A DNA stretch of 60,352 bases, filler included. It is 7 parts of 7 records of this genome, joined end to end, with 100 filler letters (N's around TTAATTAATTAA, not from the genome) between each part and the next. Parts side by side here need not be neighbours in the genome. Positions count along the whole stretch, not along the records: positions 35,732 to 49,612 come from SRR31156797_36287; 6 more parts are not named here. The stretch is one strand, 5' to 3'. Position 1 is the stretch's first letter. Each line of letters begins with the position of its first letter. This document shows, one piece after another, positions 5,225 to 49,712 of the stretch. Under the pieces are notes generated by a model. That model was not told where the DNA came from and did not search any database. It saw nothing but the letters and a program-made list of their open reading frames with translations. Position numbers and translations under genes: made by a program.

Positions 5225-5230
5225 CGGGAT

Positions 5231-6990: not shown

Positions 6991-7020
6991 GCCGGCGCAA
7001 GCCGTCTGAACGGCCTCTAA
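6991..7020. repeat. 30-bp direct repeat, right copy (contig end)
   Basis: Identical to 1-30. Confidence 0.95.
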
Positions 7021-7580: not shown

Positions 7581-7730
7581 ATGTCAAGTTCTACATCTTG
7601 TGAAGTGATTCATGCTTTAAATTCAACTCCTGGAACCAAACAACTTGTATTTGCTTTGGACAACTTAACTGATTGGGAAACAGTGGCAGATGCTACACCG
7701 AAAGGTCCTTCAGCTCATCTTTATTTGTGA
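7581..7730 (+). pseudogene. 49-aa ORF resembling a truncated DUF4347 N-terminus (or a small peptide gene)
   Basis: GGAGG at 7572-7576, ATG 7581, TGA 7728-7730; MSSSTSCEVIHALNSTPGTKQLVFALDNLTDWETVADATPKGPSAHLYL. Confidence 0.4.
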
Positions 7731-7816
7731 GCGATGCAGCTTTTGTATGAAACATCAGGCCAGTTAATATCAGCCTGATAACAGGCGCCATCATTACAAA
7801 TTGAGGTAGAACGGCT

Positions 7817-8665: not shown

Positions 8666-8676
8666 AGGAGGTGAGC

Positions 8677-17051: not shown

Positions 17052-17151
17052 NNNNNNNNNNNNNNNNNNNNNNNNNNNNNNNNNNNNNNNNNNNNTTAAT
17101 TAATTAANNNNNNNNNNNNNNNNNNNNNNNNNNNNNNNNNNNNNNNNNNNN
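17052..17151. other. Artificial contig linker
   Basis: N-run + TTAATTAATTAA + N-run. Confidence 0.99.
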
Positions 17152-18492: not shown

Positions 18493-20487
18493 TCAGCAGC
18501 TGGTTTCAACACGGTTTCGACCGGCATTTTTGGCCCGGTACAGGGCTTGATCCGCTTTTTGAATCAGGGTATCCTGATTTTCAATATCCGGCCCGTATTT
18601 GCTGACGCCGATGCTCACGGTCAATTTAAGCCCCGGGAAACGATCCGACAGCAAATTCCCAAGCTGTTCGATCTCACTGCGGACCCGTTCGGCATAGGCC
18701 TGGGCTTTTGAAAGGCCTGAGTCATTGAGGATAACGATAAATTCCTCCCCGCCAAACCGGCCCACATGATCGGATGGCCGCGAGACTTTCTTTAACGTCC
18801 CGGCGATGAGCTTAAGCACATTGTCACCAGCCTGATGGCCGAACCGGTCATTGAATTTTTTAAAAAAATCCACATCAATCATGATTACGGCAAAGGGGGT
18901 ATTATCACCGGTGGCTTTCTTAAATGCTTTTCCCAGGCAGTCTTCCACGGCCATCCGGTTCAACAGCCCGGTCAGCCCGTCCCGGCGGGAGGCGGACCTG
19001 GCCTTTAAATAGGCTGAAGCATTGTCCAAAGCCAGGCCCAGTTCATTGGCCACGACGCCAATGGAAGAAAAGAGTTCCGGCTCGATGCTTTTACCCGATA
19101 CGGCATGATCCATTCCAAGAATGCCGATGACAGTGTCACGGCTGCAGAAAGGGACGATCAGCATCTGCCGGACCGAGAATTTTTCCAACGCCTCTTTTTC
19201 ACCCCGGGCAGTTCCGGAAATCACAACCGGTTTTCTGTTTCGCAGGCATTGAATAAACCCGCCGGCATCCTTATCCAGGGGGATGCGCACCGATGCCAGA
19301 TGATCTGAAAATTTCCCCTGGTCCAGAAATTCCATGACCTCAAGGTGGCGCCGGGGCTTTGCCACTTTTAAAATATAAATGCGGTCAAAACCGAAATCAT
19401 CGCAGACCGCCTTCAGTGTGCCTGAAATAATTTTTTTCGGGTCCAGGCTGCGGTGGGGAGCGGTTATGCTGGCGGTCACGGTCCCGGCTGCTTTTGCGGA
19501 GTCATTTCCTGGCCCGGGGAAAAAATGGCCGGCATTGATGGCGCTTAGTTTCAGGTTGGCCTGGAGCAGGTTAACCCTGACCTGATCAGAGGACGGGAAT
19601 GAAAATCGGTAGAACCGGGCGGTATTTTCTATCTCTTCATCCATTTTACGGATGACTTTTTCAAAATCAATGTCATCAAGGCAGATCATCCTGCCAACTT
19701 CCGGCTGCAACGCCGGCGGACTGATAATATCCACAGCCCCCATCCCCTGGGTCCAGGCCAGAAAATTGGCCAGGGAAACAATGGAGATAAACTGCATATC
19801 TTCATGGGGAATATTCAGGTGCCCGAACCTGCGATGATGATATTGTATGACCAGGCAAAGGGGTTCTGGCAGATTCCAGATCTCCCCATAGTACGCCCCC
19901 AGGTCATCATGGCCCAGTCCCATGATCCCCCGTTCCGCTTCAGACATCTGTCCGGCAAAACCGGAGATGTTGTCCATGAAATCCGCATAATTCACCCGTC
20001 CGGCCTGATCCAGAACGATTTTCCCTATATCATGGAGCAGGCCGCCAATATAGGCATCTTCATGCCGGAGATATCCGACCTCCTTTGCAATAGCCTGGCT
20101 CAGGCTGGCCACACAAAGGCAGTGGCGCCAAAAGAACTTACGATTGAGAAGGCTCCGGCTGCCGGATGAGATCACCTTTTCAAACAGGGTCACCCCCAGG
20201 CAGATCTTTTTGATTTCATCAAGTCCCAGGTAGTGTACCGCCTCTGAAACCGCTGTAATCTTCCTTCTTAAGCTGATAAAAGAGGAATTTACAATGGCCA
20301 GAACCTTTGTTGAAATGCCGGGATCCGTTTCCAGCAGCTTGACGACATCTTCCATGGGGGCGTTGGGGTCATTGCAGACAGCCAGCGTCTTTGCCACGAC
20401 CTGGATAAAGCTCGGCAGCTCATTATCCTCTTTTTTCAAGGCCTTTTTAATTTCAGATATATCCGGAAGGTTGAGTCGACTATTCAT
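18493..20487 (-). CDS. HDOD-GAF-GGDEF diguanylate cyclase
   Basis: HDOD (ELPS..VNSS..GLLHDIGK..HH); GAF-like middle region; DGLTGLLNR, DVDFFKKFND..GHQAGD, RPSD I-site, RFGGEEF A-site. Confidence 0.92.
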   Translation of the reverse strand: MNSRLNLPDISEIKKALKKEDNELPSFIQVVAKTLAVCNDPNAPMEDVVKLLETDPGISTKVLAIVNSSFISLRRKITAVSEAVHYLGLDEIKKICLGVTLFEKVISSGSRSLLNRKFFWRHCLCVASLSQAIAKEVGYLRHEDAYIGGLLHDIGKIVLDQAGRVNYADFMDNISGFAGQMSEAERGIMGLGHDDLGAYYGEIWNLPEPLCLVIQYHHRRFGHLNIPHEDMQFISIVSLANFLAWTQGMGAVDIISPPALQPEVGRMICLDDIDFEKVIRKMDEEIENTARFYRFSFPSSDQVRVNLLQANLKLSAINAGHFFPGPGNDSAKAAGTVTASITAPHRSLDPKKIISGTLKAVCDDFGFDRIYILKVAKPRRHLEVMEFLDQGKFSDHLASVRIPLDKDAGGFIQCLRNRKPVVISGTARGEKEALEKFSVRQMLIVPFCSRDTVIGILGMDHAVSGKSIEPELFSSIGVVANELGLALDNASAYLKARSASRRDGLTGLLNRMAVEDCLGKAFKKATGDNTPFAVIMIDVDFFKKFNDRFGHQAGDNVLKLIAGTLKKVSRPSDHVGRFGGEEFIVILNDSGLSKAQAYAERVRSEIEQLGNLLSDRFPGLKLTVSIGVSKYGPDIENQDTLIQKADQALYRAKNAGRNRVETSC

Positions 20488-22907: not shown

Positions 22908-23007
22908 NNNNNNNNNNNNNNNNNNNNNNNNNNNNNNNNNNNNNNNNNNNNTTAATTAATTAANNNNNNNNNNNNNNNNNNNNNNNNNNNNNNNNNNNNN
23001 NNNNNNN
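22908..23007. other. Artificial contig linker
   Basis: N-run + TTAATTAATTAA + N-run. Confidence 0.99.
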
Positions 23008-28471: not shown

Positions 28472-28571
28472 NNNNNNNNNNNNNNNNNNNNNNNNNNNNN
28501 NNNNNNNNNNNNNNNTTAATTAATTAANNNNNNNNNNNNNNNNNNNNNNNNNNNNNNNNNNNNNNNNNNNN
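28472..28571. other. Artificial contig linker
   Basis: N-run + TTAATTAATTAA + N-run. Confidence 0.99.
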
Positions 28572-35631: not shown

Positions 35632-35731
35632 NNNNNNNNNNNNNNNNNNNNNNNNNNNNNNNNNNNNNNNNNNNNTTAATTAATTAANNNNNNNNNNNNN
35701 NNNNNNNNNNNNNNNNNNNNNNNNNNNNNNN
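35632..35731. other. Artificial contig linker
   Basis: N-run + TTAATTAATTAA + N-run. Confidence 0.99.
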
Positions 35732-35887
35732 AGCGCCCGTGTGGTTGCTAGAGCTTTAATGCATAAAAGAAGGGCTTTTGCCGTCAGGTTAGGATTCGGA
35801 GCGATGATAAAAGCCGGTTGGCCTGTCTGTACAAAAGTAAATAAAAAAGAAACATACCTGCCCGGTTATAAGCACAAATGGGATTAA
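35732..35887 (+). CDS. Probable 3' end of an upstream gene of the polysaccharide locus
   Basis: Frame open from the contig edge to TAA 35885-35887, 6 nt before the flippase ATG. Confidence 0.35.
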   Translation, partial: SARVVARALMHKRRAFAVRLGFGAMIKAGWPVCTKVNKKETYLPGYKHKWD

Positions 35888-35893
35888 AAAATA

Positions 35894-37384
35894 ATGCTGT
35901 CGGATATTAAATCCATATTCAAACATTCCTCGGTATACGGATTTTCAACCATTCTTCAAAAGGGGATTGGTTTTTTTATGATCCCTGTATATACGGGGTT
36001 CTTATCCCCATCAGATTACGGGATACTTGAATTGATGGAACTGACCATCAACATTATATCAATGCTGATAGGTCTTCGTCTCGGTTCAGGAATTATCCGG
36101 TTTTACCACGAGTATGAAACAGAAGAAGAACGAATCGAATTGTTTTCAACGGCCTTGATTTTCGTCGTGTGCAGCACCATTTTATTAGTTGCTGTTTTGC
36201 AGCTCTTTACACATCAGTTTGCAGATTGGGTACTTGGCGATAGTAACTATTTTAACTATTTTCAAATCATTTTCACGGCAATGGGGCTCCAGATTATTGC
36301 AACTGTGCCGGAAAGCATACTTTTAGCAGAAAAAAAATCGGCAATTTATTCTGGTGTTACAATTTTCACCCTTTTTTCCTACCTTGCTTTAAATGTATTA
36401 TTTCTTGTCATTATAAAAATAGGGGTAATTGGCATACTTTTAAGTATGCTAATTACAAAAATACTGAATACTTCATTTTTACTGATTATATCACGTCGAA
36501 AATATTCGTTCCGGTTTTCCTTTCAAAAATTAAAGAAGATGGTGAAATTTACGCTTCCGCTTGTTCCCGCATCTTTTTTTATGTTTGCCATGCACTATGC
36601 CGATCGTTTTTTTATTCAAAAATTTTGTGATCTTAATGAATTGGGTCTTTATTCTTTGGGATATAAATTTGGTATGATAATTTCTGTTTTAATCTCAGGG
36701 CCGTTTTTTCGTATATGGAATACAAAAAGATTTGAAATGGCAAAAGATGAAGATGCTAAACAGAAAATGGGGCTGTTTTTCACATACTATACGCTGGTCA
36801 TCACTATAGCGGCTTTGGGCATTTCAATTTTTATACGCGAAGTCATTCTGATTATGACACCGGAATCCTATTCCGGTGCAACTTCCATAGTGGCCGCCAT
36901 AACCATTGCCTATGTTTTATATGGTATTTCCAATTTTTTTAATCTTGGCATGATGCTGACATATAAAACAAAATACTTGGCCTACACCCAGATGGGCGTG
37001 TCCGTGTTTAATATAATCATAAATTATTTCCTGATTCAGTGGTGGGGTGTCAATGGGGCTGTGGCAGCAACATTGCTTTCGTTTTTTTTCTTATCAATTA
37101 TTTCATTGGTGGTTTCCCAACACCTCTACCCCATTCGAATAGAGTATATGAGAATTGGTATACTTTGGATCTTGTATTTTTCTTTCTATTGGGCTTCGTC
37201 CTTTATTCGGTTTGGAATTGTTTGGTCTTTAACTTTGAAGGCATTACTTTTTATCGGATTTCCCCTGATATTGTATTTGACGGGCTTTTTTACAAAAATA
37301 GAAATTGAAAAAACCAAAGAATTGTCAACTGCCATAATGACGACTGTGAAAAATAATACCTTGGTTTTGTTAAAAGGAAAGTAA
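35894..37384 (+). CDS. Wzx/MOP-family oligosaccharide flippase
   Basis: Many TM helices; KHSSVYG, LSPSDYG, YADRFFI, LGLYSLGYKF. Confidence 0.88.
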   Translation: MLSDIKSIFKHSSVYGFSTILQKGIGFFMIPVYTGFLSPSDYGILELMELTINIISMLIGLRLGSGIIRFYHEYETEEERIELFSTALIFVVCSTILLVAVLQLFTHQFADWVLGDSNYFNYFQIIFTAMGLQIIATVPESILLAEKKSAIYSGVTIFTLFSYLALNVLFLVIIKIGVIGILLSMLITKILNTSFLLIISRRKYSFRFSFQKLKKMVKFTLPLVPASFFMFAMHYADRFFIQKFCDLNELGLYSLGYKFGMIISVLISGPFFRIWNTKRFEMAKDEDAKQKMGLFFTYYTLVITIAALGISIFIREVILIMTPESYSGATSIVAAITIAYVLYGISNFFNLGMMLTYKTKYLAYTQMGVSVFNIIINYFLIQWWGVNGAVAATLLSFFFLSIISLVVSQHLYPIRIEYMRIGILWILYFSFYWASSFIRFGIVWSLTLKALLFIGFPLILYLTGFFTKIEIEKTKELSTAIMTTVKNNTLVLLKGK

Positions 37385-37387
37385 TAT

Positions 37388-38326
37388 ATGTCATTTAAGC
37401 TTACCATTTTAACCTTTCACAAGGTTGTGGACAATCCGTATTTTATACCGCCAATGGCAGTCAGTGTAAAAACCTTCAAAGGCCTCTTAAAAAGGCTGCA
37501 TTGGTTAGGGCGTATAATCTCCTTATCCCAGGCGGCAGAAGAAATAAAAAATGATACACTCAGGGGAAACAATTTAGCCATTACATTTGATGATGGTTAT
37601 CTTGATAATTATGGAACAGCTGCGAATATTCTTTTAAACTACCGCCTGCCGGCAACGTTTTTCGTCCCTTTTAACCAAATAGAGAAACAGGAAATATTTT
37701 GGTGGGACCATGTGTTTTTTTTGGTGGAAAAGAACTTTCAACGGTTTCACCAGTGGTTTGCCGAATTGAACCAAACAATTTCAATTGATGGATCTAAAGC
37801 CCCGGAAAAATATGCAAGACAGGTTGTTCAGGTTTTGAACGGACTTTCAGAAAACAAAAGACACCAGATTATATCAGGTTTAAATGCTGAATTTGGAAAG
37901 TATAAGGGTCCTAGACAACTGATGACCTGGGATGAGATAAAAAGTCTTGTTCACAAGGGTTTTGAAATAGGGTCCCATACCCTATCCCACATACCGTTAA
38001 CACACCTTGACGACCGGCAAGCGAAATATGAAATTTCATACTCAAAAAAATGCCTATCGGACAAAATCGGACAGGATGTAAAAGGATTTTGTTATCCAAG
38101 AGGGGCTTTTGAAAGTCCGCACTTAGAAATGGTCAGACAAAGTGGATATACTTATGCTGTCAGTACAAAATTCGGATCAAATACAAAATCTTCTAATACA
38201 TTCGCGTTTAATAGGAGAGCCATTTCCGATTATCCAGATTTTAGAAATACGGTTGCAAGCGGCATTCATCTTTTTGAACTTACAGGGGCTCTTGATAGTG
38301 TTTTGTTAAAAAGGCGGATCGCTTAA
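37388..38326 (+). CDS. Polysaccharide deacetylase (CE4/NodB)
   Basis: LTFHKV, ITFDDGY, MTWDEI, IGSHTLSH, FCYPRG. Confidence 0.92.
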   Translation: MSFKLTILTFHKVVDNPYFIPPMAVSVKTFKGLLKRLHWLGRIISLSQAAEEIKNDTLRGNNLAITFDDGYLDNYGTAANILLNYRLPATFFVPFNQIEKQEIFWWDHVFFLVEKNFQRFHQWFAELNQTISIDGSKAPEKYARQVVQVLNGLSENKRHQIISGLNAEFGKYKGPRQLMTWDEIKSLVHKGFEIGSHTLSHIPLTHLDDRQAKYEISYSKKCLSDKIGQDVKGFCYPRGAFESPHLEMVRQSGYTYAVSTKFGSNTKSSNTFAFNRRAISDYPDFRNTVASGIHLFELTGALDSVLLKRRIA

Positions 38327-38327
38327 A

Positions 38328-39593
38328 TTGGCTTTAAAATCTATACTTTTTATTCTGATTGTACTTTGTGCTTGTGCCGGCTCAATTATAATTACCCCGT
38401 TCATCGGATTGTGTGGTTATATTTTATCCTACAATATTAACCCCATTGGATTCTGGTGGGGAAAACAGCTTCCAGATATATTTCAACGGTATTCATTGAT
38501 TTTTTCATTGGCCTGTTTCGGGGGGATGATCATCCATTGGGGAAAATTGAAATACCGCAGAATTCTGGATCGGCAGGAGATTCTTCTAATACTCTTCATA
38601 ATTATAATTTGGTTATCTACCTTGACGGGTGTGCAGACACTCAATTTAGGTGAGAATAGTATGAAGATGACAAAAATTTGTATTATTCTTCTTGCCGCCT
38701 CTCACATAATAACAAATTTAAAATATTTGAATATTGTAGTATGGATTTATATATTAAGCTCATTATATAGCGGATTCGAGATTTATACCGCAGACTATCT
38801 ATCCTTTGCGGGTGGAAGGCTCCAAAGTGGCGTTGGGGGGTCTGATTTTGCTGAAGGCAACTTTTTAGCAGCCCACTATTTAATGGTTTTACCCTGGGTC
38901 GGCATTTATTTCATAAAAGGAAACATAAAAAATAAAATTATTTGTGTCTCGGCAGCCGCCATTATCGTCAACACCCTTATTTTAATAGAATCTAGGGGCG
39001 CGTTTTTAGCATTAGGGCTTGGGTCTGTCTGTGCCATTATTATTGCCGGGAAAAAATATAGAAACAAAATTATATTAGTTTTATTAATGGGCATTTCTGG
39101 TTTTATCTACCTGTCAGATACCTCCTTTTGGACTCGGATGGACACCATTGAAACAAGTGAGGCGTCCATGGACCGTTCTGCTGCAGGGAGAATCGAAGCC
39201 TGGTATGCCGCCATCGAAATGTTCAAGGATTATCCTTATGGCGTTGGAGAAGGCAATTTTAAAGTCTTAGTGGGTTCTTACAACCCTGATGCTGCAGGCC
39301 GGGATACCCATAACACTTTTTTTCGGTGCTTATCTGAACTTGGTCTGCAGGGACTTTTAACACTCCTGTTTATGATTTATACAGCATTTTCGTATCTGGG
39401 TATGATACAGAAGCATTTGGATATAAACTCACCTATTGGTCAAGAATACAATTTGCATATTATTGCGTTGCGAATTAGTTTGATGATGTACCTTGTAACA
39501 ACACTTTTTCTTAGCCACACTTATATCGAAGAATTATATTGGTTATTAATGTTCCCATTGTTTTTAAAAAGATGTTATGAAAATGAATTCTAA
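38328..39593 (+). CDS. O-antigen ligase/polymerase (Wzy_C) family membrane protein, exosortase-locus type
   Basis: Multi-TM; ESRGAFL, SAAGRIEAW, PYGVGEGNF, DTHNTF..ELGLQG. Confidence 0.85.
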   Translation: MALKSILFILIVLCACAGSIIITPFIGLCGYILSYNINPIGFWWGKQLPDIFQRYSLIFSLACFGGMIIHWGKLKYRRILDRQEILLILFIIIIWLSTLTGVQTLNLGENSMKMTKICIILLAASHIITNLKYLNIVVWIYILSSLYSGFEIYTADYLSFAGGRLQSGVGGSDFAEGNFLAAHYLMVLPWVGIYFIKGNIKNKIICVSAAAIIVNTLILIESRGAFLALGLGSVCAIIIAGKKYRNKIILVLLMGISGFIYLSDTSFWTRMDTIETSEASMDRSAAGRIEAWYAAIEMFKDYPYGVGEGNFKVLVGSYNPDAAGRDTHNTFFRCLSELGLQGLLTLLFMIYTAFSYLGMIQKHLDINSPIGQEYNLHIIALRISLMMYLVTTLFLSHTYIEELYWLLMFPLFLKRCYENEF

Positions 39594-40656
39594 ATCCTCT
39601 GTTTGTGTTGTCTCTCCTTTTCCGCCGCCATTCGGAGGAATGGCAGTTCAGGCAGAAAAGTTAGCCTGCCTTTTGGAAAAAGAGGGGTATAAGGTAACTA
39701 AAGTTGCAACAAATAATGAATTTCCATACCGATGGCGCTTCCTTGAAAGACTCCCCTTCTTTAGAACCATTGCAAGGCAGATATTGTTCCTGATTTCTTT
39801 GAACAGGTTGTTGTCAGGCGTTTCAACCGTTTATTTTTTAACAGGCTTTTTTAATTTCTTTTTCTGGGTAACCTACCCCGGGCTTGTTCTTATTTTACTT
39901 AGAAAAAAAAGAGTGATTTTAAGTGCCCGGGGGGGAGGGGCAAGATTATTTTTCAAAAAACACAGGGTTTTCATTAAACCCATACTTCGAAAACTTGACG
40001 CAATCACAGTTCCTTCGGGATTTTTAAAAGCCGCTTTTCAAGAAGAATTGGGGATAGATACCATTGTCCTTCCCAATATAGCAGATCTCAAGCAATTTAA
40101 ATTCAGACGACGTGATCGTTTTTCACCAAGGTTGATAGCAACCCGCTCCCTTGAAGAAATATATGACCTGCCAACCGTCATCAAGGCATTTTCACGTATA
40201 AAATCCCGTTACCCTGAGGCACATTTGGGGATTCTGGGCGGTGGGAGTCTGAGGCAGATGCTAGAAACAATGGTGGAAGAATTAGGGCTTAAAAAAAATG
40301 TGATGTTTTACGGTGAAGTTACACACAATCGGATTTCTGAAATTTACAATCAATACGATATTTTCATAAATGCCTCCAAGGTTGACAACCTTCCCGGTTC
40401 AGTTCTGGAGGCGTTTGCCGCAGGTCTGCCTGTGATATCAACCCGGGCCGGCGGAATTCCTTTCATGGTAACCCATAGGGAGAACGGGCTGTTGTCAGAT
40501 ATTGGTGACGATAAGACCCTTGCCAAACATGTTCGGCAAATACTTGAAACCCCTGAACTCGGCAGAGCGCTTACCATGAAAGGATATGGGGAACTCCGCA
40601 GATACACCTGGCCTTATATCAAAACCGTATTATTTCCCCTGCTGACCGATGAATAA
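39577..40656 (+). CDS. Glycosyltransferase family 4
   Basis: PFPPPFGGMA, TRSLEEIYD, DNLPGSVLEAFAAGLPVIST. Confidence 0.9.
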   Translation: MKMNSKSSVCVVSPFPPPFGGMAVQAEKLACLLEKEGYKVTKVATNNEFPYRWRFLERLPFFRTIARQILFLISLNRLLSGVSTVYFLTGFFNFFFWVTYPGLVLILLRKKRVILSARGGGARLFFKKHRVFIKPILRKLDAITVPSGFLKAAFQEELGIDTIVLPNIADLKQFKFRRRDRFSPRLIATRSLEEIYDLPTVIKAFSRIKSRYPEAHLGILGGGSLRQMLETMVEELGLKKNVMFYGEVTHNRISEIYNQYDIFINASKVDNLPGSVLEAFAAGLPVISTRAGGIPFMVTHRENGLLSDIGDDKTLAKHVRQILETPELGRALTMKGYGELRRYTWPYIKTVLFPLLTDE

Positions 40657-41632
40657 GACCGACGTCTATATAACAGTTGACACGGAACACAGCATCGGAG
40701 GGGCTTTTCAGAATCCAAAATTCAAGCCGGTTGGAAATAAAAAGAGGGTTTTCGGGAGAATAGGTGATAAACAATATGGTATCCCCCTTATCATGGATAT
40801 CGCAGACCGTTACGGATTGAAAATCGTCTTCTTTGTGGAGGTCCTGAATAAATACGTATTTGGAGAGGATGAGACCAGAAAAGTATGCGATTACATTCAG
40901 GAAAGAGGTCACGAAATTCAGCTTCATCTGCATCCTCATTATTTGAATTTTAAAGAAATTCACCCTGAAAAATTAAAATATAAAGATAATTTATACCTTT
41001 ACGGCCTTGATGAGCAGACTGCGCTGCTTGAAAAGGGCCGGTACTTGCTGGAAAGATATGATGTACAAACTCCTGTGGCATTTCGGGCAGGAAACTACGG
41101 GTTCAACAGATCGTCTCTAACAGCGTTGAAGAATACCGGATTCAGATATGACAGCTCCTATAATCATACATTCATCAGACAGGTCCAGGGATTTGGGAAC
41201 CTGGTCCTGAACGACGCTAAAAAAATCGATGGAATTTGGGAATTTCCCATTACCAATTTCATCCAAACATTTCCAAAGCGGAAACCAAAGCCGCTTGATC
41301 TGAACGGGGTTAGTTCGAATGAGATGATCCGTACACTGCAATGGGCGAACAAGTCCGGACTGTTGAAACATATTACAATCATTCTGCATTCATTCAGTTT
41401 TCTTGAACCATTGGATGTCCAATATTCCAAAGTCCGGGTCCGGCAGTATGTGATAAATCGATTTAATGCAATCTGTCGTTTTTTGTCCGAAAACAAAAAT
41501 AGCTTTTGCGTCAGAGGATTCAATGGATTGGTTGTTGATGAATCAGACGCTTCCAGCCACGAATTTTTACAAATGCCGAAATGGGCCTCTGCGAGGCGGT
41601 TGGCCCAACAGGCATTGCACCGATTTATTTAG
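40649..41632 (+). CDS. Polysaccharide deacetylase-like (CE4 superfamily)
   Basis: ITVDTE, GHEIQLHLH, FRAGNYG, YDSSYN, ILHSFS. Confidence 0.82.
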   Translation: MNKTDVYITVDTEHSIGGAFQNPKFKPVGNKKRVFGRIGDKQYGIPLIMDIADRYGLKIVFFVEVLNKYVFGEDETRKVCDYIQERGHEIQLHLHPHYLNFKEIHPEKLKYKDNLYLYGLDEQTALLEKGRYLLERYDVQTPVAFRAGNYGFNRSSLTALKNTGFRYDSSYNHTFIRQVQGFGNLVLNDAKKIDGIWEFPITNFIQTFPKRKPKPLDLNGVSSNEMIRTLQWANKSGLLKHITIILHSFSFLEPLDVQYSKVRVRQYVINRFNAICRFLSENKNSFCVRGFNGLVVDESDASSHEFLQMPKWASARRLAQQALHRFI

Positions 41633-41667
41633 GTTCATTATGAATTTAAACCAAATGATATTATTAG

Positions 41668-43785
41668 ATGATGAGAGGTAAAATGGGAACATCCAGGATA
41701 AAGGCGGGGATTATAGGTACTGGTTTTATTGCAGACCTTCACATGGAAGCGTTGAACCGGATTAAAGACGTAGAGGTCGTATGTTGTTGCGATACGAATA
41801 TGGGGCGCTCCCAAAGTTTCTCCAAACGATGGAAGATCAGGTCCTGCTATGATGATCTAGCCAAGATGATTGAAGTTGAAAAAATGGATGTGGCCCATGT
41901 TTTGGTTCCACCCAATTTTCATTTACCGGTTTCCCAAACCCTTATGGAAAAAGGTGTCCATCTTTTTCTTGAAAAGCCAATGGGGTTGACCAGCCAGGAG
42001 TGCTCTGAAATCGTAAACACCGGAAAAAAAAACAATGTTCAGGTCGGTATTAATCATAATTTTGTTTTTTATCCCCTTTTCCAAAAATTAAAAAAAGATT
42101 TGGCAAATAATAAAATCGGTAACCCCGAATATATCTGCGCATATTACGGTGGGCCGCTTGGGCAGCTTGATTTTAATCAATTCGGCAACTGGATGTTTCA
42201 AAAACCGGGAAATATACTTTTGGAGCAGGGTCCCCACCCCATATCCCAGGTGACAAATATCCTGGGCGACATCAAAAGTATCTCCGCAAAAACAGGTCCG
42301 AAAAAAGAGTTGGGGAAAAATCAGTTTTTTTATGACCGGTGGCAGGCCCTGGCTGAGTGTGAACAAGGCAATGCTTTTTTACATCTTTCATTTGGAAAGC
42401 AATACTCCAACCAGCGCAATTTTCATGTATTCGGCCGTGACGGATCCATATTTATTGATTTTTTAAACAACAGATATCTGGTTCAGAAAAAATCTCTTTT
42501 TCCTGACTATCTGGACCCAACGGCAAATGCCATGAGATACACCTGGCCGGCGATGGGCGGTCTAAAGGATTTCAGCGACTACGCCATGTCCAAAGTAAAG
42601 CTTAAAGACCGTTCAGACTCGTTTTTTATAACCATGAAAAATTCAGTGAAAGCTTTTTATGATGCATTTTCAAAAGGAGAAGCGCTTCCCTGTACCGGGG
42701 AGGACGGAGAAAAGGTCATCAAAGCCTGTGAAAGATGGATTGATGCATCACAGATAGAGGAAAACCCGAAACAAACCTATGTGTTTAAAACAGCCCAGGA
42801 TGATGATGAGGTTCTTGTAACCGGTGCCACCGGCTTTATCGGCAGCTGCCTGGTAGAACAATTGATTGAAAAAGGTATAAAAGTCAGAATCTTGGTCCGG
42901 AATATTCATGGTCTTGCCCCTAGTCTGTATTCGGATAATGTCAGGATTATTCAGGGCGATATTACAGATAAAGAATGTATCAAAAATGCAGTTAAAGGCG
43001 TTAAAACCGTTTATCATCTTGCTCACAGCCTTGGGAAGAATTGGGATGAATTTGACCGCTTTAACATTCAGCCTGCTCGCTATTTTGCCGAGGCCTGCCT
43101 TGAAGAAAAATCAACCCTTGTATTTGCCAGCACCATTGCGGTTTATTATTATGGGGATTTATCTTCAGGGATTGTGAAACATGACAGTCCCATTGATTCG
43201 GAACCCGAACTTAGAAACGGGTATGCCAGATCAAAAGTTGTGGCAGAAAACATGTTGATGGAAATGCATAAAAAACAAGGGCTTTCCCTTATCATTGTCC
43301 GGCCGGGTATTGTCGTTGGAAAGAACGGCATCCTGGAACACAGCGGTGTTGGATTGTGGACCCGGGATAATGTCTGCGCATATTGGGGCAGCGGCAAAAA
43401 TGAACTGCCCTTCGTGCTGGTGGAAGATACTGCCCGGGCCTTGGTCAATATCATGGAAAAAGAGGGCCTGGAAGGTAGTCGACTTAATCTGGTGGGTGAT
43501 GTCAGATTGTCGGCAAGGGAATATATTGACGCTTTGAAATTGTATTCCAAGAGAGATATTTCGGCGTTTGCCTACCCTTCAAGGCTTATGTACCTGTCTG
43601 ATGCCTGCAAAATCCTAATAAAGAAAATCGGTGGAGATAAAAACACATTCCTAAGTTACCGGGACCTTGCCAACCGCTCTGTAAATGCGAAATTTGATAC
43701 AGGTTTTGAAAAACAGGCACTCTCTTGGCAACCGTCTTCAAATAGAGAGGAGTTCATTCAAAAAGCCTTATCTTGGGCGTTTTAG
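41668..43785 (+). CDS. Gfo/Idh/MocA oxidoreductase fused to an NAD-dependent epimerase/dehydratase (extended SDR)
   Basis: N-terminal GIIGTGFIA..LEKP; C-terminal VTGATGFIG, YARSK (YxxxK), RPGIVVG. Confidence 0.88.
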   Translation: MMRGKMGTSRIKAGIIGTGFIADLHMEALNRIKDVEVVCCCDTNMGRSQSFSKRWKIRSCYDDLAKMIEVEKMDVAHVLVPPNFHLPVSQTLMEKGVHLFLEKPMGLTSQECSEIVNTGKKNNVQVGINHNFVFYPLFQKLKKDLANNKIGNPEYICAYYGGPLGQLDFNQFGNWMFQKPGNILLEQGPHPISQVTNILGDIKSISAKTGPKKELGKNQFFYDRWQALAECEQGNAFLHLSFGKQYSNQRNFHVFGRDGSIFIDFLNNRYLVQKKSLFPDYLDPTANAMRYTWPAMGGLKDFSDYAMSKVKLKDRSDSFFITMKNSVKAFYDAFSKGEALPCTGEDGEKVIKACERWIDASQIEENPKQTYVFKTAQDDDEVLVTGATGFIGSCLVEQLIEKGIKVRILVRNIHGLAPSLYSDNVRIIQGDITDKECIKNAVKGVKTVYHLAHSLGKNWDEFDRFNIQPARYFAEACLEEKSTLVFASTIAVYYYGDLSSGIVKHDSPIDSEPELRNGYARSKVVAENMLMEMHKKQGLSLIIVRPGIVVGKNGILEHSGVGLWTRDNVCAYWGSGKNELPFVLVEDTARALVNIMEKEGLEGSRLNLVGDVRLSAREYIDALKLYSKRDISAFAYPSRLMYLSDACKILIKKIGGDKNTFLSYRDLANRSVNAKFDTGFEKQALSWQPSSNREEFIQKALSWAF

Positions 43786-43797
43786 GGTATTATCGCT

Positions 43798-44907
43798 ATG
43801 AAAAAAATACTTCATGTAATCGAGCGGTTCAATGTGGCAGGCGCAGAAGTGGTTGTCCGAGATATTTTAAAAGCCGCAGATAAGGATAAATGGGAAACAG
43901 AAGTATGCGTACTCCATGATATCGGTGTAATCGGGAAAGAAATGTTTGAACAAGGTTATCCTATTCATTTTTTAGACTGGACCCAGGAAGGCTTAAGTGA
44001 TGCCGCAGTCGCGAAAAAATTAAAATCTGTGATACGGAATAGAAATATTGATATCGTCCATGCTCATAATGTAACGCCATGGTATTTTTCATATAGAGCC
44101 CTGAAAAAGGAGTCCATAAAACTCTGTGTAACGATACACGGATTCATAAAAGGCCAAGGAAGTTTAAGGAAAAAACTATTCTATATTTTCCTGTCCAGAT
44201 TCACAGACCAGATTATTATGGTCTCTGAGTCGATTCAAAAGGATGTTTCAAAGCTTCCTTTGATGAATTTGAAGGACTCGAAGGTGATTGTTAACGGTAT
44301 TGAATTGGTCCAAAACGAGGAAGTCGATTACGAGGCCGTTAGGCAGGAAATCGGACTCAAGCAGGAAGATTTTGTAATCGGGACTGTTGGAAGACTTTAT
44401 GAAGAAAAAAACATTGAAATGCAGCTTGAGATGGTTGGACAATTGGCCAAAAAGATTCCAAATTTAAAATTGGTTATTGTATCAAAAAAATATGACTATA
44501 TCAAAAAACTGGAAGTAATGATTGATGATTTAGGCATCGGGGATAAGGTTGTCTTTACCGGGCTGCGCAGGGATATTCCGAGAGTTTTATCAATGTTTGA
44601 TATTTTTGTGATGACATCTTTTTCAGAAGGGACATCAATCGCGCTTTTAGAGGCTATGTCTTCAGGACTTCCTGTCGTTGTCAGTGAGGTGGGAGGCAAC
44701 CCGGATGTTATACGGCATAACGACAATGGTTTATTATTCAATGTTGACGATTTGACTGATTTTTGCAGCCACATACAGATGCTTTATAAAGACGCGGCTC
44801 TTCGCAAGGATTTAGCTGCAAAGGCAAAAGTCTCCAGCAAACGATATGCCATTGAAAACATGATAAAAGAATACGATTCTGTTTATCAAAAACTTTCTAA
44901 CCTGTAA
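43798..44907 (+). CDS. Glycosyltransferase family 4
   Basis: AGAE, IVHAH, GTVGRL..EKN, SEGTSIALLEAMSSGLPVV. Confidence 0.92.
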   Translation: MKKILHVIERFNVAGAEVVVRDILKAADKDKWETEVCVLHDIGVIGKEMFEQGYPIHFLDWTQEGLSDAAVAKKLKSVIRNRNIDIVHAHNVTPWYFSYRALKKESIKLCVTIHGFIKGQGSLRKKLFYIFLSRFTDQIIMVSESIQKDVSKLPLMNLKDSKVIVNGIELVQNEEVDYEAVRQEIGLKQEDFVIGTVGRLYEEKNIEMQLEMVGQLAKKIPNLKLVIVSKKYDYIKKLEVMIDDLGIGDKVVFTGLRRDIPRVLSMFDIFVMTSFSEGTSIALLEAMSSGLPVVVSEVGGNPDVIRHNDNGLLFNVDDLTDFCSHIQMLYKDAALRKDLAAKAKVSSKRYAIENMIKEYDSVYQKLSNL

Positions 44908-44931
44908 TTCACTTTTAAAAGGAAATGGAAT

Positions 44932-46146
44932 TTGATGTATTCTAATTTTGCGATTCTGCCTAATTGCAATGTAAGGGCAATGGAAGGGGTTGTTTCTTCC
45001 CTGGGAAAAAGAGGAATCCCTTTGGTCTGCCTTAGCACAACCGATCAATGCAGTGCGTTTCATTCGAAATATGCTCAAAAAAAATTAATATCTCCCCCAA
45101 CAACGAGTGAGGAAGATTTTTTAAAATTTCTGATATCAAAGGTGCCTAGGGGGGTATTATATGCATCTGACGATCAAACTACCCTATTGTTTTCAAAAAA
45201 TGCAGATTTATTAAAAAAAGAAGGTTTTTTAATAAATATTCCCGAATACTTTCAACTGAAAACCGGATTTGATAAATGGCTCTGCTTTAAGAAAGCAACC
45301 AGCATAGGTATTCCTTGTGCTTACAGTTATAAGATATCCTGCAAGGATGATCTTTCCTATATAAAAGAAAATATGGCGGTTCCTTATATCTTAAAAGCGA
45401 CAACATTAGCGGGTGGAAATTATATTAAAATAAATCATAAAAGCGAATTAGAAAATGCCTATAAAAAAATACAGGCCACCATTGAAAAACAAAAAAATTC
45501 TATCCTGAATCCGGAAATAATTGCCCAGGAGTGGCTTGAGTATGAGATGGAAGACATTTGGTGCCTTGAGGCGTATTATGATAAAGGCGGTGTCCCACAA
45601 GGATTTATGCCGATTCGGAAAATAAGAACGGAGATAAAGCCGGATGGGACATACGGAAGCCGGTTATACGCTGGTGAATCCCGCCAATGTCCTGAACTGA
45701 CAGAATTATCCAGAAAGCTGCTGGATAGTTTAGACTGGAAAGGGTTTGCACATTTTGACTGGATTTTTTCCAGAAAAAAGAATCAATTTTTTTTAACAGA
45801 GATAAATCCGAGATTACCTGGGTTTAGTTTTTATCCATCCAATGCAGGTTTTGAAATGGCTTATTACTATTATGCCGACCTCACAGATCATTCTTATCAT
45901 ATTCCTAAATTTCGCCCCTCCTTGTATTTTGAACCTTTAAGATATCCTGGCGATATCTCGGCTTCAATATCTACCATTATTAGAAAACAGTACAGCGTAA
46001 AAACCTTTCTTCACTCTTATATCAGCATTCTTTTTTCAAATAGGCCTATCATCTTTGATTTTTTAGATATCCATGATTTTCGAATGACCGGCTATAATCT
46101 ATTTCGGATGGTATCTACAGTGCTCAGGGAATGTTTGAAAAAATAA
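44932..46146 (+). CDS. ATP-grasp carboxylate-amine ligase (D-aspartate-ligase-like)
   Basis: FDKW..IGIP, PYILKA, IAQEWL, GFAHFDW, FLTEINPR. Confidence 0.8.
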   Translation: MMYSNFAILPNCNVRAMEGVVSSLGKRGIPLVCLSTTDQCSAFHSKYAQKKLISPPTTSEEDFLKFLISKVPRGVLYASDDQTTLLFSKNADLLKKEGFLINIPEYFQLKTGFDKWLCFKKATSIGIPCAYSYKISCKDDLSYIKENMAVPYILKATTLAGGNYIKINHKSELENAYKKIQATIEKQKNSILNPEIIAQEWLEYEMEDIWCLEAYYDKGGVPQGFMPIRKIRTEIKPDGTYGSRLYAGESRQCPELTELSRKLLDSLDWKGFAHFDWIFSRKKNQFFLTEINPRLPGFSFYPSNAGFEMAYYYYADLTDHSYHIPKFRPSLYFEPLRYPGDISASISTIIRKQYSVKTFLHSYISILFSNRPIIFDFLDIHDFRMTGYNLFRMVSTVLRECLKK

Positions 46147-46212
46147 TTCGTAAAAACCAAGATAAGGCTCTTTCTTTACTTTGGTATAATTAAAAAAGAT
46201 AAGGATAAAAAC

Positions 46213-48816
46213 ATGGGTCCATTCTATCAATCTAAAATTCTTTCAAAGTTTAGGGGCTTTTTAAATTTATTGTCTATGAGTCGTGGCGAGGATAAACTTT
46301 CTGTCTATAGACAGATATATGAGATGATATATCTCTTTATATCAAGGGGACTGAGTCCCAATTACTACAATGATGCCGGGTTTGCCTCCAAAGATATCCC
46401 ATGGGAAACCAAAAAACTGTATTTGAGTTCAAAAAATTACTATAAGGCTGTATGGAAACTCAATAATAAAGATTACAGAAAACTGTCACAGAACAAAATG
46501 GCTGAAAAAGCCATGTTTTCATTATACAATATTCCGACACCGGCCTATCTTGGATATTTAGATGTGGCGAACGGCAGAACCCCTGAAGGTGCTCCTCTTT
46601 GTTCCGACGGGGATCTGTATTCGTACCTGGCGGGTCTCGTTGGACGGAGAGTCTGTTTCAAACTGCTGGAAGGATGGGGTGGCAAAGGATTTAAGGTTGT
46701 TGATGTGATAAAAAAAGACGGACAGGTTTGTTTAAGGCATTTAAACGGAGACATACAGCGCATTGATGCGTTTTATGACAATACCCTTAAATTTTCTTCC
46801 AATACTTCCTATCTGATGGAGGATTATTTCCAGCAGCATGAAAGCCTGCTCCGACTAAACCCCTCAAGCGTCAACACCATCAGAATCTGGGTGGTCACCC
46901 GGCCGGGCGAGAACCCTACAAGAGTGGTCGGTGCTTTTCTAAGGCTAGGTCGCAAAGGTAGTCTTGTCGATAATACGGACGCTGGCGGTTTTATATGCGG
47001 CATAGATCTTGATGGCGGACGACTGAAACATGGAGAAGAAGTATCCAGCAAAGAGATCATGTACGAAGTCCACCCAGACACAGGTGAACGGATAAAGGGC
47101 GAAAAAATACCATACTGGCATGACGCAAAAGCGCTTGCCATCAAAACCGTAACAACCTTTCCACACATTAACTTTGCTGGAATTGATGTCGCCATTGGCC
47201 CCCAAGGGCCGGTAATCATTGAGATGAACGTGCCGCCGGACCCAAGCGGCGGTGTTCAACTCGGGTTTTGCAGAAAGGATCTGGTTTCTGCGGAACCATG
47301 GTCTAAGCAAAAGGTTTTTAGTGATGCAGACGCACTCTTTCAAGAACTGTACAAAGTTTACCTTAAGTCAACGGATATAAAATTTCAGTCTGATTACGTA
47401 AAAGCCGGTACCATTTATTTTGCCATACCTAAATACAAACCTGGAGGTATAAAAAAACATATGGCAATATGCTGGTCTTTTCTGGAGCTACATGCCCATC
47501 CGCTATTAACGGCAGTAGAGGCCCTTTTAAAAACCACGCTTCCAAACAGCAGGATATACCGAAGCTATACTGAACTATTGGATTACAAGTTCAATCCGGA
47601 TGCATATGCTGAAAAAGCTATCGAAAATGGTGCTTTGCTGTCGGTGGTCAGCACGACAAAGTGGTCCGGAGACAAGTTCATCCAAGTACCGGATGTGGAA
47701 CATTATTTTTACCGGTTTGTTGACTATCATCGGCGAAAAATTAATATTCCGTTGATTGCCATTACCGGATCATGCGGCAAGACAACCACTAAAGAACTTT
47801 GTGCTGCCGTTCTTCAGCAAAAATATTCGCTGATTGCAACCGACCATAATTACAACACGGAGATAGGAGCAGCACTGACTCTTTTGAAAACTAAACAATC
47901 TGCTGAAATGGGAATTCTGGAGCTTGGATCTGCCGGTCCGGACAGTATTCGCAGAAAAGCTCAGATTGTCAAACCGACAGCAGGTTTGATCACAAAAATC
48001 GGTAAGGCCCACTTGGAAGGCTTTGGCAGTGTTGAGGGCGTTAAGCGGATAAAGGGGCAGTTATTTGAGCAAGTCGCAGAAAACCAAGGGCTTTTTTTTC
48101 TAAATCTGGATGACGAGCATATTAGGGACATCGCAGGCGGATATAAAAATATTATGACATATGGTTGCCATTCCGACGCCATGATACAGGGAAAAGTCCT
48201 TGAAAGCACCCCCTATCTCAAACTAGAATGGATATTGAATACCTCAGCTTTTAAGGAACAAAAGGGAGAGGCATATACGATCTCCACCCAATTGTTTGGA
48301 GGTTATAATCTAAGCAATGTTCTTGCAGCGATAAGCGTTGGTTTATATTATGGTGTTCCTGCTCAGGATATCTGCTCAGCCATATCTTCATACCGACCGG
48401 ACAATAACCGCTCCCAAATCGTTCACTGTGAGGATACCACATTGATTGTAGATGCATATAATGCAAATCCGACAAGTATGGCCGCGGCACTTGAAAGCTT
48501 CAGCAAAATGCCTGCTGAATCAAAGGTTGTCATTCTCGGAGATATGCTGGAACTTGGAAAATTCAGCAGGCAAGAGCACAGCAGAATTTTAAAGATGCTA
48601 ACAGCTATGGATTTGGATAAAGTCTTTCTTGTTGGCAATGAATTTGGGAAGTTCGAGGGAGAATATCCATACTGTTTTTTCAAAAATATTCAAAGTCTAA
48701 TGGACTCTGTTCAGGTTTATACCGTTCCTAAAACAACGGTATTCATCAAGGGTTCTAATAGTATTCAACTTGAAAAATTGGTAGAGCGCTTTAAGGATAC
48801 CTGTACTGTAAAATGA
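46213..48816 (+). CDS. Fusion: sugar-transfer-associated ATP-grasp domain + divergent MurF-like Mur ligase
   Basis: aa ~1-355: NK..IPTP, FK..GWGGKG, QH..L..LNPSSVNTIR, R.G..VDN..AGG, HPDTG, IPYW, GIDVAI..GPVIIEMN. aa ~370-867: ITGSCGKTTTKE, AHLEGFGS, NNRSQ, DAYNANPTSM, LGDMLELG, IKGS. Confidence 0.9.
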   Translation: MGPFYQSKILSKFRGFLNLLSMSRGEDKLSVYRQIYEMIYLFISRGLSPNYYNDAGFASKDIPWETKKLYLSSKNYYKAVWKLNNKDYRKLSQNKMAEKAMFSLYNIPTPAYLGYLDVANGRTPEGAPLCSDGDLYSYLAGLVGRRVCFKLLEGWGGKGFKVVDVIKKDGQVCLRHLNGDIQRIDAFYDNTLKFSSNTSYLMEDYFQQHESLLRLNPSSVNTIRIWVVTRPGENPTRVVGAFLRLGRKGSLVDNTDAGGFICGIDLDGGRLKHGEEVSSKEIMYEVHPDTGERIKGEKIPYWHDAKALAIKTVTTFPHINFAGIDVAIGPQGPVIIEMNVPPDPSGGVQLGFCRKDLVSAEPWSKQKVFSDADALFQELYKVYLKSTDIKFQSDYVKAGTIYFAIPKYKPGGIKKHMAICWSFLELHAHPLLTAVEALLKTTLPNSRIYRSYTELLDYKFNPDAYAEKAIENGALLSVVSTTKWSGDKFIQVPDVEHYFYRFVDYHRRKINIPLIAITGSCGKTTTKELCAAVLQQKYSLIATDHNYNTEIGAALTLLKTKQSAEMGILELGSAGPDSIRRKAQIVKPTAGLITKIGKAHLEGFGSVEGVKRIKGQLFEQVAENQGLFFLNLDDEHIRDIAGGYKNIMTYGCHSDAMIQGKVLESTPYLKLEWILNTSAFKEQKGEAYTISTQLFGGYNLSNVLAAISVGLYYGVPAQDICSAISSYRPDNNRSQIVHCEDTTLIVDAYNANPTSMAAALESFSKMPAESKVVILGDMLELGKFSRQEHSRILKMLTAMDLDKVFLVGNEFGKFEGEYPYCFFKNIQSLMDSVQVYTVPKTTVFIKGSNSIQLEKLVERFKDTCTVK

Positions 48817-49436
48817 AAATTATAGAAGCTTTTATATTATATTACCGTGTTAAGGCCCTCTCTTTATATTTAAGATCAAAAGGCATCTATTGTACGATAA
48901 ACGCCCATTTCAGGGATAAAAAAACTGCGCACAAATGGAGTACCGCATACAGTATTATAACAGGAAAAGTCCAATTGGGGGCTTTGCGTTCATTGGATAA
49001 AGGATATGACCTTGATGGAAACCGCTGGTATGAAGTCGCTTGGGATACTGGCGGAAGTGATGAAATACCAGCGAAAAACTGTTCTGCCATCAAAGAAAAT
49101 GCTTTGGCTTTATACGGTCCTGACAAAATCGTTTTTGCTGCAGAAGGATATGAGTCTGGTACGGCTAGGCGGAAACCGAATGTTAATGACATTCCCGTGT
49201 CAAAGCATGTTTACGGAGCAGCAATTGATATCAACTTACACTGGGACCGTATAGGTGGGCCGTGGAGCGGTAAGGCTAGAAGGCTTATGAGTGATTTTGG
49301 CTTGTTAAGACCCGTGTCAAATGAATGTTGGCATGTTGAACTCAATAAAAAAAAATCCCCGAGGTATTTACCCTATGAAATCCTATGGTTCTGGTTAAAA
49401 TCCAGGAGGAAGAGTATGTCCAACCACCTCAATTAA
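48813..49436 (+). CDS. M15-family (VanY/LAS-type) zinc peptidase
   Basis: SKHVYGAAID (SxHxxGxAxD) and NECWH (ExWH); ATGA overlap with the upstream fusion gene. Confidence 0.8.
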   Translation: MKIIEAFILYYRVKALSLYLRSKGIYCTINAHFRDKKTAHKWSTAYSIITGKVQLGALRSLDKGYDLDGNRWYEVAWDTGGSDEIPAKNCSAIKENALALYGPDKIVFAAEGYESGTARRKPNVNDIPVSKHVYGAAIDINLHWDRIGGPWSGKARRLMSDFGLLRPVSNECWHVELNKKKSPRYLPYEILWFWLKSRRKSMSNHLN

Positions 49437-49612
49437 TCAAGCTATAAACCGTTTTCCAGCAGGCCGTTACAACTGAAGCGCTTCCCAAGGTGATCGATTC
49501 TCATCCTCGATTATTACTTCGAAGGGGTCCGTGGGCTCACGACCATGATTTGAAAAGCTTGAAATCCTGGTCATCAGAAAATCACTTTAAATCATATTTA
49601 AGCAGAAAACCC

Positions 49613-49712
49613 NNNNNNNNNNNNNNNNNNNNNNNNNNNNNNNNNNNNNNNNNNNNTTAATTAATTAANNNNNNNNNNNNNNNNNNNNNNNNNNNNNNNN
49701 NNNNNNNNNNNN
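49613..49712. other. Artificial contig linker
   Basis: N-run + TTAATTAATTAA + N-run. Confidence 0.99.

Follow-up and report, generated by a model that had tools for sequence, protein, structure and literature searches.

A Wzx/Wzy-type surface-polysaccharide operon that ends in a MurF-like fusion and a peptidase-like gene

We analysed a 60,352-nucleotide stretch of DNA (hereafter the window), in which ten open reading frames (ORFs) of one orientation occupy positions 35894–49436. The contig that carries them is part of a Wzx/Wzy-type surface-polysaccharide operon, and its three terminal genes—a stand-alone ATP-grasp ligase, an 867-amino-acid fusion of an ATPgrasp_ST domain with a MurF-like ligase, and a candidate zinc peptidase—appear, on current evidence, to be one functional unit. 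This ATPgrasp_ST/MurF-like/peptidase module is rare and apparently undescribed, and lies within an otherwise ordinary-looking polysaccharide operon. The function that we favour, with about even confidence, is the cytoplasmic decoration of a surface-polysaccharide repeat unit with peptides, with the peptidase as editor. Domain calls for the ORFs were made with Pfam and NCBIfam scans at curated cut-offs, and the module comprises the following parts.

44932..46146, + strand: stand-alone ATP-grasp carboxylate-amine ligase with an EINPR motif, 404 amino acids (CPSase_L_D2, 23.2 bits; cut-off 19.8)
46213..47310, + strand: ATPgrasp_ST domain of the fusion, approximately residues 1–366 (PF14397, 133.8 bits; cut-off 31.4)
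47317..48816, + strand: MurF-like ligase part of the fusion, approximately residues 369–867 (TIGR01143 murF, 297.5 bits; cut-off 288.6)
48813..49436, + strand: LAS/M15-like zinc peptidase candidate, 207 amino acids (called from motif and fold; its start overlaps the stop of the fusion gene)

The ATPgrasp_ST–MurF-like fusion

The fusion is rare and unites, cleanly and end to end, two genes that occur separately elsewhere; its presence in two independent assemblies shows it to be real. A search of 5.8 billion clustered proteins, in which the 8000 candidates sharing most words were scored, yielded 133 matches, and only one of these (P0004; 863 amino acids, 72% identity, 99% query coverage) has the same architecture. 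The halves were found as separate proteins in P0126 (ATP-grasp) and P0005–P0008 (ligase). A scan of genome contigs with the fusion alignment, based on narrow patterns taken from its ATP-grasp half, returned a single 30%-identical MurF from a metagenome-assembled genome (MAG) of Acutalibacteraceae, a result that speaks only weakly for rarity. Plasmids searched by tblastn gave 128 records, none covering at least 80% of the fusion, the best being ordinary Bacteroidales murF genes (37–41%). The matches of the protein search also included other MurF-like fusions: a Gly_transf_sug::MurF-like protein (P0011, 672 amino acids), a SusD-like::MurF-like protein that is possibly a gene-call artefact (P0013, 659 amino acids) and a Pept_tRNA_hydro::Mur ligase protein (P0105, 632 amino acids).

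The ligase half scores above the TIGR01143 cut-off and contains the middle (Mur_ligase_M PF08245, 129.5 bits) and C-terminal (Mur_ligase_C PF02875, 59.2 bits) domains together with a P-loop, all of which it shares with MurF (3zm5, 2am1, 1gg4 and 4cvk). It aligns with MurF chains in the PDB (E = 1.5e-39) from MurF residue ~46–54 through the end, and its P-loop (GSCGKTTTKE) and its DAYNANPTSM and LGDMLELG segments line up with those of the solved enzymes. The canonical relatives nearest to it are of Bacteroidota type (37–41% identity). The difference from MurF lies in the N-terminal domain, where the features of canonical enzymes (PF01225, TTDSR...FFALKGExFDG) are missing from the window ligase; the Pfam scan detected no PF01225 in this part of the protein. 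In an alignment of N-terminal regions, an insertion of 40–52 residues was present in all seven members of the clade of the window ligase and in none of eight canonical MurFs, whereas TTD(S/T)R was present in 8/8 canonical MurFs and 0/7 clade members; the P-loop reads GSCGKTTTKE in the clade versus TNGKTTTK in canonical MurFs. Unlike MurF, the window ligase also sits behind an ATPgrasp_ST domain, and its gene is in a polysaccharide operon, not a dcw-type cluster.

A tree of 66 sequences (quick search, LG+G4) joined the window ligase, P0004, the stand-alone proteins P0005–P0008 and the ligases of two further loci described below (L003 and L001) in one clade separate from MurF (Shimodaira–Hasegawa-like approximate likelihood ratio test (SH-aLRT) support, 94). 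Its sister group comprises 23 canonical MurFs, some of them Bacteroidia-named (joint support, 100). Canonical Mur ligases use the N-domain to hold the UDP-MurNAc moiety of the substrate, and because this domain is altered here, the clade probably represents MurF-derived ligases with a different acceptor, for which a housekeeping MurF role is unlikely. One clade member carries the NCBI annotation MurF of Porticoccaceae/Pseudomonadales MAGs, probably a mis-annotation.

The ATPgrasp_ST half is a clear family member sited in a polysaccharide operon: in addition to its Pfam score, the catalytic Lys/Arg and Mg-binding acidic residues are in place, with K95, K150, R224, D325 and E337 invariant in 42 aligned relatives and N339 conserved in at least 90%. 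The name of PF14397, 'sugar-transfer associated ATP-grasp', comes from association of the family with sugar transferases. Iyer et al. 2009 reportedly predicted a role in cell-surface polysaccharide synthesis, and we know of no biochemically characterized member. The predicted model (predicted local distance difference test (pLDDT), 92.3) has an ATP-grasp fold, the best PDB matches of which were RimK (E = 3.6e-9), then ArgX/LysX and then Ddl-type ligases. Enzymes of these types couple an amino acid to a carboxylate, in many cases one carried by a larger substrate; RimK and LysX/ArgX extend such carboxylates or acylate them. These top structural matches (5zct, 7qys, 3vpb and 3vpd; E = 3.6e-9 to 1e-7) differ from ATPgrasp_ST in that identity is just 12–17%, the template modelling (TM) score is 0.40–0.57, the genomic context is another one and ATPgrasp_ST has an additional N-terminal helical region of ~100 residues. 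The stand-alone ATP-grasp protein has PRK12767-type matches (~33 bits), and Atlas clusters named carboxylate--amine ligase at 0.98.

An exhaustive HMMER search with fusion residues 1–455 against 1.84 billion representatives detected ATPgrasp_ST relatives in 8588 representative clusters (E ≤ 0.001). The 361-residue P0126 (60% identity) is a stand-alone ATPgrasp_ST orthologue that stops at query residue 363. Among the best 150 representatives, P0004 alone runs on into a Mur ligase part, and thus fusion to a MurF-like ligase, which sets the window member apart from its family, is shared by 1 of 150. All 21 other proteins of at least 500 amino acids in this set (range P0222–P0272) are tandem ATPgrasp_ST proteins, and all 21 lack a Mur ligase domain; the tandem is accompanied by PGA_cap and LRR domains in P0231 and by a GT2 in P0262. 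These tandem proteins, and the fusion of one of them to GT2, fit the stepwise assembly of glycan-linked peptides.

The peptidase-like protein and recurrence of the module

Although the first-pass annotation of this locus named the last gene product an M15 zinc peptidase, the Pfam side of that call did not hold: the only match was Peptidase_M15_4 (E = 0.01; 16.8 bits versus a cut-off of 25), and among nine relatives four matched (best E = 0.0017), all under the cut-off. The zinc-peptidase side is supported by motif and, more tentatively, by fold matches. H132-x2-G-x-A-x-D139 and E171-x-W-H174 (HxxGxAxD...ExWH), which fit the pattern H-x(6)-D/E-x-x-H, are invariant in 9/9 aligned relatives; on the LAS/M15 pattern, the H/D/H of HxxGxAxD and ExxH would be the zinc ligands and the Glu would be catalytic. 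AHxWSTAY, R34, D66, D68, W72 and W77 are also invariant in nine sequences. The predicted model is moderate (pLDDT 76.4, falling below 50 at residues 104–118 and 125–134, which include H132). All top Foldseek matches were LAS enzymes (VanY, VanXYc, LdcB and VanX), but with E ≥ 0.078 and a model that is poor at residues 104–134. VIA gave DacB (4nt9; Z = 7.1, root-mean-square deviation 4.2, 111 aligned), LdcB (5.7 (4oxd) and 5.3), VanY (5zhf; 4.9), VanX (1r44; 4.2) and hedgehog (~4), and Atlas placed M15B/VanY clusters at 0.88–0.90. A PDB search by sequence and profile returned only tRNA adenosine deaminase (E = 0.15), taken as a chance match. The protein is thus a candidate for a divergent LAS-type zinc peptidase and is not a Pfam M15 member: it resembles LAS/MEROPS M15 enzymes (DacB/LdcB, VanY, VanXY and VanX) in HxxGxAxD and ExxH and, by the top matches of a moderate model, tentatively in fold, and differs in its sub-cut-off Pfam scores, its extra invariant motifs and an export signal that is not apparent. 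Because its N-terminus is a charged helix rather than a signal peptide, it probably works in the cytoplasm; in the alignment this helix is confined to module-associated copies.

Relatives are very few: the set of 5.8 billion proteins contains two homologues, P0124 (67%) and P0125 (49%), and a plasmid search gave no match. Eight loci in JGI metagenomes carry the peptidase-like domain (tblastn). Four copies are distant (27–41% identity, tblastn), and three of these are C-terminal domains of toxin-type proteins: two eCIS_core (DUF4157) proteins in contractile-injection loci (L004:8720-10399 and L006:438-2102) and an RHS-repeat protein (L008:2-1498). The fourth is C-terminal in a 5′-cut ORF with an empty Pfam scan (L007). 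In the RHS and eCIS proteins the domain looks like an unclassified toxin-type effector domain, and because it ends such proteins, it may attack a target that many bacteria share, the simplest candidate being a peptide of cell-wall type.

The module recurs among unrelated, uncultured bacteria. P0004 and P0124 each lie on one 27,140-bp contig, so that the fusion and the peptidase-like gene are most probably linked in a second organism; no flippase homologue on a contig of this size was among the 120 matches listed (of 351). In three of three further loci with a 47–49% identical peptidase-like gene, this gene lies beside an orthologous MurF-like ligase or ATPgrasp_ST genes. It is convergent with a MurF-like ligase 40% identical to that of the window in L001, adjoins two tandem ATPgrasp_ST genes in L002 and adjoins a MurF-like ligase in L003 (34% identity in a 502-residue alignment that takes in the special N-terminal region). 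All four module-type peptidase copies thus adjoin a clade MurF-like ligase or ATPgrasp_ST genes. The three loci are not from one organism, because their guanine–cytosine (GC) contents differ widely (0.36, 0.35 and 0.60 for L001–L003) and their peptidase-like proteins are 53–65% identical to one another. L003, a GC-rich metagenome locus, is an amide-assembly cluster without a visible glycosyltransferase: positions 4938-12054 hold genes for MurF-like ligases of 494 amino acids (with the N-domain insertion) and 437 amino acids (without the N-domain), two PaaK/F390-synthetase-like adenylate-forming ORFs, a GNAT gene and the peptidase-like gene.

In the window, an ATGA overlap (−4) joins the stop of the fusion gene to the start of the peptidase-like gene. 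This overlap, with the recurrence in a second organism and in the three further loci, bears out the earlier proposal that the terminal genes are one module; the insertion and the loss of TTDSR in the N-domain likewise support its view that the MurF is not housekeeping-like.

The polysaccharide operon and its link to the module

The module follows seven genes for polysaccharide synthesis, listed here with their contig and the linkers of the window.

35732..49612: locus contig, 13,881 bp, GC 0.40, bounded by linkers at both ends, with the entire locus inside
35894..37384, + strand: Wzx-type oligosaccharide flippase, 496 amino acids (Polysacc_synt 71.1 bits, Polysacc_synt_3 63 bits)
37388..38326, + strand: CE4 polysaccharide deacetylase, 312 amino acids (PF01522 (Polysacc_deac_1) 85 bits; weak PdaB/PgaB-type NCBIfam matches)
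38328..39593, + strand: Wzy_C membrane protein of polymerase or ligase type, 421 amino acids (PF04932 63.2 bits)
39577..40656, + strand: GT4 glycosyltransferase, 359 amino acids (Glycos_transf_1 110 bits)
40649..41632, + strand: DUF2334/CE4-like protein, a weak call, 327 amino acids (DUF2334 24.6 bits; cut-off 26)
41668..43785, + strand: GFO/IDH/MocA oxidoreductase::SDR epimerase/dehydratase fusion, sugar-nucleotide modifying, 705 amino acids
43798..44907, + strand: second GT4 glycosyltransferase, 369 amino acids (Glycos_transf_1 127 bits, Glyco_transf_4 72 bits)
7021-7120, 17052-17151, 22908-23007, 28472-28571, 35632-35731 and 49613-49712: linkers

A flippase, a Wzy-type membrane protein and glycosyltransferases in one operon fit a Wzx/Wzy-dependent locus. 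The gaps between consecutive genes are +3, +1, −17, −8, +35, +12, +24, +66 and −4 nucleotides, and with the domain calls they confirm the co-oriented, closely spaced ten-gene cluster that had been described. A promoter/terminator scan did no better than on shuffled sequence (53 versus 38.3 ± 6.5; 15 versus 13.1 ± 3.8). The Wzy_C protein also matches TIGR03097 PEP_O_lig_1 (120 bits, under the cut-off of 188) and the second GT4 matches TIGR03088 stp2 (165 bits, under the cut-off). Of the two CE4 deacetylases proposed in the first-pass annotation, the first stands, with a 124-position profile spread over residues 59–256 that places an insertion of roughly 75 residues in the catalytic domain; the second is weak, with PF01522 at only E = 0.005 in addition to its DUF2334 score, and an empty NCBIfam scan. 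The oxidoreductase–epimerase fusion matches PF01408 (90 bits, residues 11–130) and PF01370 (108 bits, residues 382–607), together with UDP-GlcNAc 3-dehydrogenase-like (79 bits) and HpnA-like (100 bits) models, both under cut-off. For the flippase, 351 homologues were counted (E ≤ 1e-20); among the matches listed, six clusters with 64–77% identity stand nearest to it, one of them on a 5.7-Mb contig and one named Deltaproteobacteria.

The window consists of seven contigs joined by six linkers of one type, in which TTAATTAATTAA is flanked by N44 on both sides (N44-TTAATTAATTAA-N44), and adjacency across the linkers is therefore meaningless: the cytochrome c peroxidase that precedes the locus, like the binding protein and the histidine kinase that follow, belongs to another contig and is not its neighbour. 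GC contents of the seven contigs range from 0.40 to 0.60, and the contigs may have been drawn from a mixed bin. The locus is cut on both sides, with contig ends 162 nucleotides upstream of the first gene and 176 nucleotides downstream of the last. No initiating phosphoglycosyltransferase, chain-length or export genes were detected on the 13.9-kb contig; because it is cut at both ends, such gaps (initiating transferase, export, sugar-acid and racemase genes) do not count as absences. Elsewhere in the window, one other contig encodes a sulfotransferase followed by a surface protein of 2749 residues whose domains are DUF4347, cadherin, LamG, Ig-like and DUF4214 (7817-16920), and signalling genes are densely packed on further contigs (860-6553 and 18493-20487): a 1454-residue hybrid PAS/dCache histidine kinase with Hpt, a REC-EAL protein and an HDOD-GAF-GGDEF protein.

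A role of the module in glycan synthesis is supported by tight packing (24 nucleotides between the second GT4 and the stand-alone ATP-grasp gene), by the fusion of ATPgrasp_ST to GT2, by the fusion of a MurF-like domain to Gly_transf_sug in P0011 and by the association with sugar transferases that gave ATPgrasp_ST its name. Several observations weigh against it. The link depends on operon position in a single contig cut at both ends, on which no uronic-acid dehydrogenase, aminotransferase, racemase or initiating transferase was detected. In L003 no glycosyltransferase was seen over 10 kb on one side, the other sides of L001–L003 being contig ends. The peptidase assignment is weak by sequence and profile, as are the Foldseek E values. 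Finally, the six close flippase clusters (among the matches listed) compare with one relative of the fusion and two of the peptidase-like protein, and because flippase relatives outnumber fusion relatives, close glycan loci seem mostly to be without the module. The expectation that the module would be conserved with the glycan genes elsewhere was thus disappointed, and the result comes near to what the first-pass annotation had itself named as grounds for giving up its interpretation. That interpretation survives in part: unity of the module and the altered MurF speak for it, the lack of conservation with the glycan genes against it, and the D-amino acids, deacetylase-freed amine acceptors and cross-linking that it proposed are conjectural. 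Because the flippase has many close homologues and the fusion only one, the module resembles a portable addition more than a constituent of a conserved glycan pathway. Such scarcity near glycan genes is expected for a variable decoration cassette, and equally for an unrelated passenger.

Predicted function and its alternatives

Gene order, domain identities, intact catalytic motifs, the fusion and the recurrence of the module are shown by the results above; which acceptor and which amino acids of which chirality are used, how the steps follow one another and how the module ties to the glycan are what we infer in the following scheme. The stand-alone ATP-grasp and ATPgrasp_ST would each form one amide bond through an acyl-phosphate, yielding a dipeptide or placing the first amino acid on a sugar with a carboxyl or amino group (in the latter case a freed amine) within a repeat unit linked to a nucleotide or lipid. 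The MurF-like domain of the fusion would activate a precursor carboxylate and couple it with an amino acid or dipeptide, much as MurF attaches D-Ala-D-Ala, and its altered N-domain would recognize an acceptor other than UDP-MurNAc-tripeptide. The translationally coupled LAS/M15-like peptidase would edit in the cytoplasm, trimming a terminal residue or destroying a competing dipeptide. LdcA, VanX and VanY act in this way on peptidoglycan precursors, and the best structural matches of the peptidase are carboxypeptidases acting on stem peptides, consistent with such a function. Wzx would then flip the decorated unit, and the Wzy_C protein would polymerize or ligate it. The pairing of a Mur-type ligase with a cytoplasmic peptidase that shapes or polices the attached peptide has counterparts in recycling (Mpl and LdcA) and resistance (VanA/VanX/VanY and MurF); this locus differs from them in its enzyme families, with no Ddl-type ligase or LdcA (S66), and in having a glycan operon as its context.

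It is unlikely, in our estimate, that the module works apart from the glycan genes, in the remodelling or salvage of peptidoglycan precursors, following the logic of a van cassette or of Mpl/LdcA. The ATP-grasp would make an alternative dipeptide, the MurF-like ligase would load the muropeptide precursor and the LAS peptidase would remove the normal dipeptide or terminal residue. The murF-level score of the ligase and the match of its middle and C-terminal domains to those of solved MurF would agree with this, as would the fold matches of the peptidase to LD-/DD-carboxypeptidases and VanX/VanY/VanXY, the widespread substrate (for example, a cell-wall peptide) suggested by its occurrence on RHS-repeat and eCIS_core proteins, and the L003 module without visible glycan genes. 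However, neither ATP-grasp belongs to the Ddl/VanA family (the stand-alone protein scores 19.7 versus 245.65 bits for TIGR01205, and the fused one is RimK-like, without a Ddl match), the N-domain, with which MurF binds the UDP-MurNAc moiety, is rebuilt, and the module genes are inside, and translationally packed with, the Wzx/Wzy/glycosyltransferase operon. Neighbours of the VanH, VanRS or Mur-pathway type were not detected on the contig. A Van-type D-Ala-D-Lac/Ser cassette in the strict sense was rejected on the same TIGR01205 and Ddl comparisons, with no VanH-type dehydrogenase or two-component genes detected on the contig.

Distinctly improbable is the synthesis of a free or carrier-bound small peptide or acyl-peptide (a natural product or signal), for which the operon position would be incidental. 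The L003 set, with its two PaaK/F390-synthetase-like ORFs, GNAT and second Mur ligase, resembles small-molecule amide assembly, and the module is much rarer than the glycan genes. Set against this are the short gaps, with a GT4 gene just 24 nucleotides from the first ATP-grasp, the glycosyltransferase fusions of both ATPgrasp_ST (GT2) and the MurF-like domain (Gly_transf_sug), and a contig on which transporter, carrier-protein and tailoring genes typical of peptide natural products were not detected.

We regard as a long shot an extension of peptide decoration in which the operon would build a second peptidoglycan-like polymer: a Wzx/Wzy-exported heteropolysaccharide with a MurF-installed dipeptide end on the repeat unit, the energy-rich terminal peptide bond of which could be spent outside the cell on ATP-independent cross-linking or anchoring, the LAS peptidase setting the number of reactive ends. 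If this were true, the anchoring targets would be the glycan itself, peptidoglycan or proteins. 

Least credible, and very improbable, is that the fusion is a cyanophycin-synthetase-like iterative polyamide synthetase with the peptidase as depolymerase or primer-generating hydrolase: a single chain of ~870 residues in which an ATP-grasp precedes a Mur-ligase-like domain recalls CphA1 in order and length, and TeCphA1 appears at rank 41 among the ATP-grasp fold matches, but both domains belong to other subfamilies, the ligase part being specifically MurF-like and not CphA-M-like, the halves are separate genes in relatives and no CphA N-domain was detected. Cyanophycin synthetase membership was rejected at 58 versus 850 bits for TIGR02068, a match confined to the Mur part (residues 507–776).

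Amidoligase decoration of surface glycans is already known as a kind of system, and the module would belong to it. Capsules and O-antigens decorated with amino acids are known from their chemistry, but most of the enzymes are, to our knowledge, uncharted. A full-text literature search, with subscription journals and supplements outside its scope, found no ATPgrasp_ST–MurF fusion, no polysaccharide locus that pairs a MurF-like ligase with an M15-type peptidase and no MurF-type ligase tied to the amino-acid decoration of capsules or O-antigens, in line with the first-pass annotation, which knew of no described pathway with this combination. The available part of one article describes a different protein, a MurF′–alanine racemase chimera of Bacteroidota (PMC13726279), and the available part of the lipocone paper does not treat the module (PMC12419801).

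The natural fusion links an uncharacterized ATP-grasp family of 8588 representative clusters with a MurF-like clade that is usually annotated as MurF, and an unclassified zinc-peptidase-like family has a second use in RHS and eCIS proteins, where it forms a toxin-type domain. Once worked out, the chemistry of the module would correct a recurrent mis-annotation and give ATPgrasp_ST a function, and it would also show whether peptidoglycan-style peptide assembly was recruited for other glycans.

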